Part shown: positions 10,983-22,607 of the stretch, piece after piece
Layout of the letters: every line of letters starts with the position of its first letter
Numbering within the stretch: the stretch's first letter is position 1
From: Escherichia coli
GTDB taxonomy: Bacteria; Pseudomonadota; Gammaproteobacteria; Enterobacterales; Enterobacteriaceae
DNA: 64,000 nt
NCBI RefSeq assembly: GCF_046105845.1
Contig: NZ_CP151004.1
Direction: 5' to 3' (one strand)
The notes under the pieces: model-generated
Database searches by the model: none
What the model saw: only the letters and a program-made list of their open reading frames with translations
What the model was told of the DNA's origin: nothing
Position numbers and translations under genes: made by a program

Positions 10983-19595
<8,613 letters not shown>

Positions 19596-19907
19596 GCTTA
19601 CCTTCCCTGAACGAGCTAACATAAATGCGCCCTTTCTAGCACAGCGAAAAAATGTAAATCCTGATAGCAATATGATTGAAAATTAATAAATTTTCGTTAA
19701 GCAGTTTTGGGTGTGGGTTGCAAGAGGGGAGACTACTGAATTACTCAAGTTTTGTAATCGAGGGGAAAATGGTGATGGCGTTCATAGCAAAACGCCCTCA
19801 ACCATAAAGGTCGAGGGCGCTTAAGATGTCAAAAACCCGCTATCCGTTAAAAAGCAATGCTCAACTAAGGTCAGTGACATTGCGCTAAAAAGCGAATTTT
19901 TAGAATT

Positions 19908-20083: not shown

Positions 20084-20881
20084 TTAATGAACATTCGTCG
20101 CCGAAAACGAGTCTGTATCATTAGCGTGATGCAGTCTCTGCAAAGGATCTTGTTGATAAAATTGGCAGAAACGTTGCCACAATGAAGGGAAACGAGGAGC
20201 AAAAAGTTCTGGGGCGCTAAAGAAATATTCAGAAAGTACGGCAAAACATTCAGCAGGATCACTGGCAGCATAAGCATCGATGCTCGCCGCATTCTCGCCA
20301 ACTAATTCGATTTCTTCCTGAATATTGTTCATTGCAGCATGAAGATCGTGTTCCCAGCCAGCAACCTCACGCAACGGAATAAAGGGAACTCCGCTGGCGC
20401 GATCGCCATTACGGGTGTCCAGCTTATGAGCGACTTCATGAATAATCAGGTTAAAACCAGAAGCATCAAAAGAATCTTGTATATCCAACCAGTTCAAAAC
20501 GATAGGCCCTTGCTGCCAGCTCTGACCTGACTGAACAATACGTTGGTTATGCACCAAACCGATATCGTCTTCCCATTCGTCATCGACCACAAATGGCGCA
20601 GGATAAATTAAGACTTCATGAAAACCATCCAGCCATTCCAGTCCTAACTCCAGAACGGGAAGGCAAAATAGAAGTGCTATCCGGCAGCTTCTTAATGAAT
20701 CCAGTTCAAAGCCCTGTAAAGGAACAAGCCGCTTTTGCTGTAAAAAACGTTCGGCAAGAGTGACTAATTTGCTTTGTTCCTGTTCCGTCAGACACGTTAA
20801 AAGGGGGATCGATAGTGCTTCCTGCCAGGGCAGGGCAGTTTGATGTGCTGATTCTTGTACTTTCCAGGGCCACTTAATCAT
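20084..20881 (-). CDS. mtfA: Mlc titration factor A (zinc-dependent peptidase-like), 265 aa
   Basis: ORF 20084..20920 recognised as MtfA; start placed at [19 protein letters not shown] zinc-binding motif present. Confidence 0.85.
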
Positions 20882-20974
20882 CGTTTTGCTCGCAAACTCG
20901 TCACTTGAACAAAATTGCACGGACAGGGACTGTTAAAATGCCAAATTTCCTGGCATCATGGCAACCATCTGAAC

Positions 20975-21064
20975 GGAGAGATGCCGGAGCGGCTGAACGG
21001 ACCGGTCTCGAAAACCGGAGTAGGGGCAACTCTACCGGGGGTTCAAATCCCCCTCTCTCCGCCA
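20975..21064 (+). tRNA. serU: tRNA-Ser (CGA)
   Basis: 90-nt sequence ggagagatgccggagcggctgaacgg...ctctctccgcca with long variable arm, CGA anticodon and CCA end; divergent from mtfA. Confidence 0.9.
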
Positions 21065-21732
21065 CTTTATCAATGACTTATCTCCCGACTTCCCGCCTTG
21101 CTTTTCCTAAACAGAACAATCGTAGAATATTCTTGAAGGGTTAGATCGTCACTGTTTTCTGTTCGATACTGTGACATTCAGCACTTGATTCGCTATGGAT
21201 CTGACAGGAAGGTTTCGAGCGAAAATGTGCAGTTATTCAGTCGTTTTCTTATCGGTCACCATTATTCTTTTAGACATTGATCCTACAAAGCTGCCGCAAA
21301 GTTGGTGGTGGGAACTGAAGTTGCGTAGAGAAGGGGTCAATAATTGAGCAAAAAAAGGAACGCGGCCGTCAGATTAAAGCCGCGGGACAAAGTCCATAAT
21401 TTCCAAGAGTTGTTGAATTTCCCAGCTTTTTTGAAAGCCTTTGTATCATACTAACAAGTAAAAAAGGTTTAAATACCAAAATTAACCTATATTTCTGGTT
21501 AGCTTTACCATGACAGATGACTTGCTCCTGGAGACATTGGCGCAGCCAGTCTGTATTGGTGAGTTGTGTATTTATTGTTCGCCGTTTTCTCAGTTTTTTC
21601 TACAGACATAATAAAAAAGACACGTCTCAAGCATGAGCGTGTCTGAGTTTGTCTTATTTATTTGTCTTGGTAAATTATTGTCGTTACTACCAGGCACTGT
21701 TCTGTTAAATAATTGAAGTCAGCGCAAAAAAA

Positions 21733-22383
21733 TCAATGAGACATCATCTCCTCGACCACTTCTTCGCTACTCAACTGATATGGATAATACGTTGGCCAGT
21801 TTTCCATTTCATTTAATAAAGATTGCTGTGAATCATTACCCATAAAAATGTGAAAATGAGATGATTTTCGTGGTGCAATTATATGATCGCTAAATTGAAT
21901 ATATTTAGGGGCTTTGCTTTCAGGATCTTTACATTCGAATAAGTAACGAACGCCTTTCTTGCCTGATTTATAGGTGAGTATTTTGTATCCATCGTAATCA
22001 TATTTACAGGATGTTGTTTCATTATTTCTATGGAATTCAACAATGCCGTCCTCAATGCCAATCATCTCGATATCTGTCACATAACCTTTGCGATAATAAT
22101 CTTTAATTTCAGCAAATGTTTTGGTTTTATCTGCATCCGCTTTCTTCTGAAAGACGGGGTCAAGTTTGCCACTTTGCAGTAAAGGATAAACGGATTGCCA
22201 GACTCCATCCCAGTCACTGAGCGTTCGGTTTTGTACATTGGCATCATCAAAAACACCATTAGCAGCTTTTTGTTCGACCTCTGTTAAGGGTTTGCCGTGT
22301 GAGTGATGACCATGCGAAAAGGCAGGAGCGCTAACAATAAAGACACCTAAAGCAACAGCCAGTTTATGAAGACGAATCGCCAA
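21733..22383 (-). CDS. zinT: Periplasmic zinc/cadmium-binding protein ZinT (216 aa)
   Basis: Signal peptide followed by HGHHSHG His-rich motif; recognised as ZinT (YodA). Confidence 0.9.
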
Positions 22384-22416
22384 AACAGTTTCCTCCAGAG
22401 TTAATGTATATGATGT

Positions 22417-22438
22417 GTAATGTTATATTGTAACATAT
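22417..22438. promoter_or_regulatory. Zur-box-like palindrome upstream of zinT
   Basis: gtaatgttatattgtaacatat lies 35-55 bp upstream of the zinT start and matches the AT-rich Zur operator palindrome; zinT is a known Zur target. Confidence 0.55.
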
Positions 22439-22572
22439 AACAAAATGCAACAACTCTTAGGAGACAAGAGAATAGTTCTCTCAGGTGTGCTTATCTATCT
22501 TATTGAAATAAAATAAATTATGTCGATGATTTGAGGTTGATGACAAACGAAACATAACTTGATGTGATCTGC

Positions 22573-22607
22573 GTAGGCCGGATAGGGCGCTCGCGCCGCA
22601 TCCGGCA
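22573..22607. repeat. REP (repetitive extragenic palindromic) element
   Basis: gtaggccggatagggcgctcgcgccgcatccggca in the msrQ-zinT intergenic region has the typical REP palindrome. Confidence 0.5.

Follow-up and report, generated by a model that had tools for sequence, protein, structure and literature searches.

A native, most likely ancestral yodB-less spacer between serU and zinT in Escherichia coli

In Escherichia coli K-12 (NC_000913.3), yodB (b1974, 531 bp, 176 aa, "putative cytochrome b561") lies between zinT (b1973) and the tRNA gene serU (b1975). Outside E. coli, the genes closest to E. coli YodB are cargo genes ("morons", PF01292) of Citrobacter and Hafnia prophages. These lie between lysis and terminase genes, with flanks unrelated to those of K-12 yodB, and none of them occurs in the DNA analyzed here. 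The tRNA gene is itself a site of integration. It is the attachment site of a published Stx1d prophage, and this prophage, the SerU-LTIIb prophage and the island of strain Nissle 1917 share the same tRNA gene and downstream flank with the locus described below. Within ST410, yodB is present in one sister clone and absent from another, and the gene served as a qPCR marker (PMC10786849). This marker use and the Stx1d prophage site were the only related items found in a search of the literature, which gave no description of the zinT-yodB-serU polymorphism as such.

We analyzed the same locus in a 64-kb stretch of an E. coli genome (the window). An initial annotation had placed a yodB of about 176 aa between zinT and serU in K-12 and seen no intact copy here. 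Its K-12 gene order was right: the order in NC_000913.3 is zinT-yodB-serU. The gene order in the window (yeeJ, asnT, mtfA, serU, spacer, zinT, msrQ, msrP, hiuH) is the K-12 order reversed, so that flanking genes, order and orientation are alike in both genomes (hiuH-msrP-msrQ-zinT ... serU-mtfA-asnT-yeeJ). Positions 21065-21732 are exactly the 668-bp spacer between the convergent serU and zinT, on the 3' side of serU, with a G+C content of 39%. The features of this region are as follows.

20975-21064, + strand: serU, tRNA-Ser(CGA), intact and unoccupied (ARAGORN; Rfam tRNA, 57 bits); its 3' end is present in a single copy in the window.
21003-21342: 62-nt 3' part of serU plus 278 bp of flank, also found in phages ev099, PhiR70_1 and mEp332 (99.1% identity).
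21065-21210: serU-proximal block of 146 bp, the part of the spacer best conserved across Escherichia.
21065-21511: haplotype-common part of the spacer, 447 bp, about 98% identical to K-12 2043021-2043467 (blastn).
21348-21388, - strand: G+C-rich hairpin followed by a T-run, predicted to be terminator-like from sequence and fold.
21350-21462: block of about 113 bp that both E. coli haplotypes have and E. albertii lacks (MAFFT alignment of these with Nissle).
21445-21473, - strand: promoter-like site TTTAAA-17-TATGAT, a lead only (9/12 matches, consensus scan).
21512-21732: haplotype-specific segment, 221 bp, in place of the K-12 995 bp with yodB and homologous to the E. albertii spacer.
21606-21645, - strand: predicted Rho-independent terminator of zinT (hairpin 21618-21645, U-tract 21606-21617).
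21733-22383, - strand: zinT, intact ORF of 216 aa; 97.8% nucleotide identity to K-12 across msrP-zinT.

Elsewhere in this gene array, the yeeJ inverse-autotransporter ORF (10983-19670, - strand) is 2895 aa long when called from a TTG start. Its length is 7020 bp in K-12 and 8007 bp in MEW, the closest strain, a difference that presumably reflects the copy number of Ig-like repeats.

The initial annotation had reported neither an intact yodB nor any ORF of at least 60 aa in the 668-bp interval, and both observations were confirmed. The longest complete ORF within 21065-21732 has 50 aa (21195-21347, + strand). A 79-aa ORF lying partly in the interval (20905-21144, + strand) was rejected as spurious because its reading frame crosses the serU tRNA gene. 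Taken alone, the lack of an ORF of at least 60 aa is uninformative, since no such ORF occurs in 59% of shuffled versions of the 668 bp either. A tblastn search with K-12 YodB against the whole 64-kb window gave a best E value of 0.29, thus revealing no yodB, intact or as a remnant, at this locus or elsewhere in the window. By this search, no YodB-like gene or pseudogene fragment of the cytochrome b561 family (PF01292) was recognized in the window. When 20800-22600 was scanned with Rfam 15 at E values up to 1, the tRNA was the only credible family; sub-threshold matches scored far too low (sX4, 25.6 vs 70 bits, overlapping the tRNA). The serU-proximal 146-bp block (21065-21210) is 84% identical in E. 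albertii and 93.8% identical in Escherichia sp. MOD1-EC7003, and its fold is no better than that of shuffles (z = +1.28). The interval 21065-21732 reads as ordinary non-coding intergenic DNA, without a protein-coding gene.

The distance from zinT to serU is 1442 bp in K-12, and the spacer of the window is 774 bp shorter. Such a difference is what one would expect if yodB had been deleted from an ancestor with the K-12-type segment, leaving the 668-bp spacer behind. The blastn alignment to the MG1655 zinT-yodB-serU interval, which does carry yodB, gave a different picture. Homology to K-12 extends through the final base of the zinT stop, breaks off there and restarts at window position 21511, equivalent to K-12 2043021. 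The sequence enclosed by these breakpoints measures 221 bp in the window (21512-21732) and 995 bp, with yodB inside, in K-12. Apart from a 37-nt hairpin stretch (z = 5.3 vs shuffles), located 88 nt from the zinT stop in the window and 93 nt from it in K-12, the segments are unrelated. Because unrelated segments of 221 bp and 995 bp stand in each other's place, the difference, as judged from the alignment, is a segment replacement and not a simple deletion. What the two loci do share, besides the genes, is the 447-bp serU-side spacer and the core of the zinT terminator hairpin; they differ in the replaced segment and in the U-tract, which the K-12 hairpin lacks.

The two boundaries are not equally well defined. 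On the zinT side, a recombination tract reaching into the gene was considered and rejected, since divergence is not raised towards the 3' end of zinT; the boundary is accordingly sharp at the stop codon. On the serU side, 6 mismatches are clustered in the first 22 bp, which makes this boundary fuzzy by about 20 bp. No direct repeats were found at the locus (20900-22500) or at the K-12 breakpoints, and no serU-like pieces were found inside the K-12 segment.

The single element common to the two segments was examined on the zinT strand. In the window, 11 base pairs and a single bulged base form an imperfect hairpin (21618-21645) that leads into UUUUUUAUUAU and begins 88 nt past the zinT stop. 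It has an MFE of -17.9 kcal/mol (z = -3.78) and occurs once in the 64-kb window. Comparison of the window with Nissle, K-12 and E. albertii shows the hairpin in each of them; 7 of the 9 predicted pairs are intact in all four sequences, one of them through a compensatory change from A-U to G-C in E. albertii, and the other two are each broken in one sequence. We read 21606-21645 (- strand) as the putative Rho-independent terminator of zinT, an assignment made on structural and comparative grounds. In K-12 (2042118-2042153; L001 2119-2154), the hairpin is retained and the U-tract is replaced by GUAUAUUAAUAA. Because this U-tract is degraded, read-through is possible in K-12, and in yodB-positive strains zinT transcription might continue into yodB in this way. 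A consensus scan for promoters and terminators gave counts not above shuffle expectation; it missed both this hairpin and the G+C-rich one because their loops exceed 8 nt.

That second hairpin lies at one edge of the 113-bp block (21350-21462). The promoter-like site TTTAAA-17-TATGAT (- strand) is located within the block about 90 nt upstream of the G+C-rich hairpin and its T-run. This arrangement possibly corresponds to a candidate short transcript (about 2043094-2043182 in K-12, + strand) or to a terminator of yodB in K-12; the possibility that the block encodes an unannotated transcript of about 90 nt would follow from the former. One could then propose that the spacer hides an unannotated gene for a small protein or sRNA in yodB's stead, functionally or structurally, the more so as the block is specific to E. 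coli and ORFs of 33-50 aa exist in the spacer. However, the candidate block lies in the part common to both haplotypes and, being present in both, is no replacement for yodB. It has no Rfam match, its fold does not go beyond shuffles (z = -1.1), and the count of promoter-like sites does not exceed what shuffles give. As for the ORFs, they were rejected as genes: in E. albertii the ATG of the 33-aa ORF is not preserved, and the stretch corresponding to the 50-aa ORF is either deleted or aligns poorly. We consider a hidden gene in place of yodB extremely improbable.

The initial annotation had suggested that the difference could stem from the position of the locus at the 3' end of a tRNA-Ser gene, an integration hotspot. 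The hotspot is real in other strains. Many genomes' matches begin at base 29-30 of serU, which corresponds to a 62-nt att repeat starting from the anticodon stem and used by lambdoid prophages (the NCTC10444, SerU-LTIIb and Stx1d prophages). Others begin at base 77, corresponding to the 14-nt att repeat of a P4-like integrase island (Nissle, ST1193 and MOD1-EC7003). In occupied strains, the integrase lies 27 bp past serU (NCTC10444) or about 165 bp inside the 14-nt att repeat. The tyrosine recombinases of the serU islands of Nissle 1917 (L002 655-2040) and MOD1-EC7003 (L006 5657-7192) are 98% identical. With such heavy use of the site, integration at serU followed by imprecise excision could in principle have removed or replaced yodB in this strain, and the finding that some phages hold 278 bp of the same flank could be taken in the same sense.

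The locus itself does not bear this out. The serU gene of the window is unoccupied, with mtfA on one side and its native flank on the other. Unlike the elements described above, the window shows no insert, no att duplication and no integrase: a second serU 3' end was not found in the 64 kb with up to 3 mismatches allowed, no integrase or phage gene was found beside serU, and the spacer has no ORF of at least 60 aa. Nor does the variable segment adjoin the tRNA gene. It extends from a point 447 bp away from serU as far as the zinT stop, outside the att region, and the intervening DNA, intact and conserved, is common to K-12 and E. albertii. Finally, either spacer version is found beside an occupied as well as an empty serU (the yodB-less Nissle and ST1193 have an integrase island there and the window has none), and the yodB polymorphism is therefore independent of serU integration. 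Given the position of the breakpoints, the lack of att repeats or of direct repeats at the junctions, and the unoccupied serU, the polymorphism is not the footprint of an integration at serU, and an origin by imprecise excision is very unlikely. The hotspot part of the earlier suggestion thus holds for other strains, and its link to the missing yodB does not.

The same flank was found in free phages. The lambdoid phages ev099, PhiR70_1 and mEp332 contain the segment 21003-21342, which is identical to the window at 337 of 340 positions (99.1%) and 96.4% identical to K-12 (L092 3501-3840 for ev099; L094 3501-3838 for mEp332). It sits between a tail-fibre assembly gene and a block with an AraC regulator, an IS fragment and an integrase. 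Since the integrase of a normal serU prophage starts 27 bp past serU, the 278 bp of these phages seem to be host flank captured together with attR.

The distribution of the two spacer versions was then determined in 5426 complete E. coli genomes. The 995-bp yodB segment is present in 3114 of them and is nearly always annotated yodB; the 221-bp short segment is present in 2301 (about 42%), with 93-100% identity to the window. Together, the two segments cover 5415 of the 5426 genomes. With a query extending from serU to zinT, serU, spacer and zinT were found as one block in 5191 genomes, with lengths of 1409-1410 bp for the short version and about 2183 bp for the yodB version. The short version occurs in ATCC 11775, ST131, Nissle 1917 and ST1193, and the yodB version in K-12, ATCC 8739, O157:H7, O103:H2 and part of ST410. 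ATCC 11775 is likewise yodB-less and 98.7% identical to the window from serU to zinT. The yodB-less ST131 and Nissle have a collinear spacer with the same terminator and belong, with 93-94% identity over the 221 bp, to the 1405 genomes in the 90-95% identity band. The strain-specific difference that the initial annotation had envisaged is therefore a common one. The internal divergence of 6-7% fits an old, vertically inherited non-coding sequence.

Three rare variants were also observed. In strain HS-02, the spacer carries a 64-to-23-bp change. In E. coli EC2001, an IS903B-family element replaces msrP-msrQ-zinT and most of yodB (L003 1976-3176), and just the last 176 bp of the K-12-type segment remain, adjoining serU. 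In Escherichia sp. MOD1-EC7003, hardly anything separates the zinT stop from the serU-proximal 146 bp, which makes this a third spacer allele.

In order to orient the change, zinT loci of other species were compared. A scan with a ZinT query, using one genome per species, returned 80 loci, among which the Escherichia outgroups were E. albertii and Escherichia sp. MOD1-EC7003; E. fergusonii, E. marmotae, E. ruysiae and the E. coli representative were absent from the loci returned. A further search for Escherichia by ZinT protein search and cluster listings gave E. coli and Shigella names only. Within 5 kb of zinT, yodB was found at none of the 78 loci of other species, except for two E. coli-like contigs in mislabelled MAGs; these two aside, none of the zinT loci scanned outside Escherichia lies near serU, mtfA, msrQ or yodB. 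The MAGs in question, labelled Bacillota and Bacteroides (L039 and L078), carry zinT-yodB-serU-mtfA at 98-100% identity to E. coli and are almost certainly cases of E. coli contamination of the bins.

E. albertii keeps msrQ-zinT-serU-mtfA with a zinT-serU spacer of about 565 bp and without yodB. This spacer is homologous to that of the window throughout, apart from the 113-bp block (21350-21462), which it lacks, and between the zinT stop and serU it runs collinear with the short version, the 221 bp included. For the 221 bp, the local alignment score against the E. albertii spacer is 40, compared with a shuffle mean of 10.8 (z = 17.4). The K-12 995-bp segment matches E. albertii solely around the hairpin (z = 5.3). 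This collinearity makes the short version the ortholog of the outgroup spacer and the K-12 segment the odd one out. Because E. albertii is yodB-less with a spacer of the short type, absence of yodB is probably ancestral and the yodB segment acquired, a direction that we infer from one good outgroup.

These observations bear directly on the deletion hypothesis. It could still draw on the presence or absence of yodB in closely related clones (PMC10786849), and on the terminator-like hairpin of the common 447 bp, which would be able to serve yodB. Clone-level loss is, however, equally explained by recombination with a donor of the short haplotype. Moreover, a deletion cannot produce 221 bp for which E. 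albertii has a homologous stretch and K-12 has none, and a remnant of yodB is undetectable. The divergence of the short segment within E. coli, being that of an old vertical sequence, also speaks against it. The gene loss considered in the initial annotation is thus not what the locus indicates, with 221 bp that have no K-12 counterpart save one hairpin, no trace of yodB and a yodB-less E. albertii. We judge it unlikely.

If the yodB segment was gained, its relatives may indicate from where. Searches with the YodB protein gave E. coli matches at about 99% identity and then none down to 77%. Apparent intermediates at 84-87% identity turned out to come from E. coli, where the gene at this locus carries a frameshift. 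The nearest relatives outside E. coli, with 72-77% amino acid identity, come from Citrobacter, Hafnia and other assemblies. Some of them are located between prophage holin/lysozyme and HNH/terminase genes, and others adjoin bor and dinI prophage relics. A Salmonella homolog (65% identity) has an unrelated chromosomal context, and no YodB relative examined outside E. coli adjoins zinT. Because the 72-77% relatives sit in prophages or beside such relics, the gene family is mobile and often phage-borne, which points to a horizontal gain in E. coli.

The flanks of K-12 yodB do not lead to a phage source. The prophage-borne homologs align to K-12 over the coding region only (72-73% nucleotide identity). 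When the K-12 spacer was compared by blastn with 50,697 phage records, matches arose only where the record itself contains chromosomal flank. Several features speak against a simple prophage relic at serU as the origin of the yodB segment, which is not next to the att core and has neither att repeats nor phage-like flanks. In addition, a diverged zinT terminator is still recognizable in the K-12 segment at a near-equal offset (93 vs 88 nt), which would imply a donor with zinT upstream of yodB. This arrangement was found in no sampled other species, and this counts against the acquisition reading.

Taken together, the locus of the window is most likely a native yodB-less spacer of the ancestral type, and the yodB version a horizontally acquired replacement. 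The ancestral E. coli spacer would have been the short form, orthologous to that of E. albertii. An unrelated segment of 995 bp with the accessory cytochrome b561 gene yodB would then have been acquired horizontally in place of the 221 bp; we infer its foreign origin from the distribution of its relatives. The yodB version would subsequently have spread to some lineages, including those of K-12 and ATCC 8739, O157:H7, O103:H2 and part of ST410.

A more elaborate scenario is suggested by the terminator region, where the short E. coli haplotype is closer to the E. albertii spacer than to the yodB haplotype. Given this divergence, the yodB haplotype may stem from outside the E. coli/E. albertii clade. 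The two spacer versions would then form an old, deeply diverged haplotype pair and not a simple insertion or deletion, the yodB one being former prophage cargo kept at intermediate frequency. In such a case, yodB could have been mobilized first as cargo of a lambdoid prophage and brought in later by recombination, one crossover falling precisely on the zinT stop. A condition-dependent cost or benefit of YodB, for instance, could maintain the intermediate frequency (57% vs 42%). We regard this scenario as doubtful in its entirety.

With the native spacer as the preferred reading, the case has consequences mainly for annotation, and its import beyond that is small. For the specialist, there are two by-products: the closest relatives of YodB occur as prophage cargo, and 278 bp of host sequence from beside serU are found in some free lambdoid phages. 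For E. coli itself, yodB is an accessory gene and not part of the core, and its absence here should therefore not be taken for a deletion, a pseudogene or a fault of the assembly. The species as a whole does not have the gene order of K-12 by default; at this locus, K-12 probably holds the derived, acquired version.
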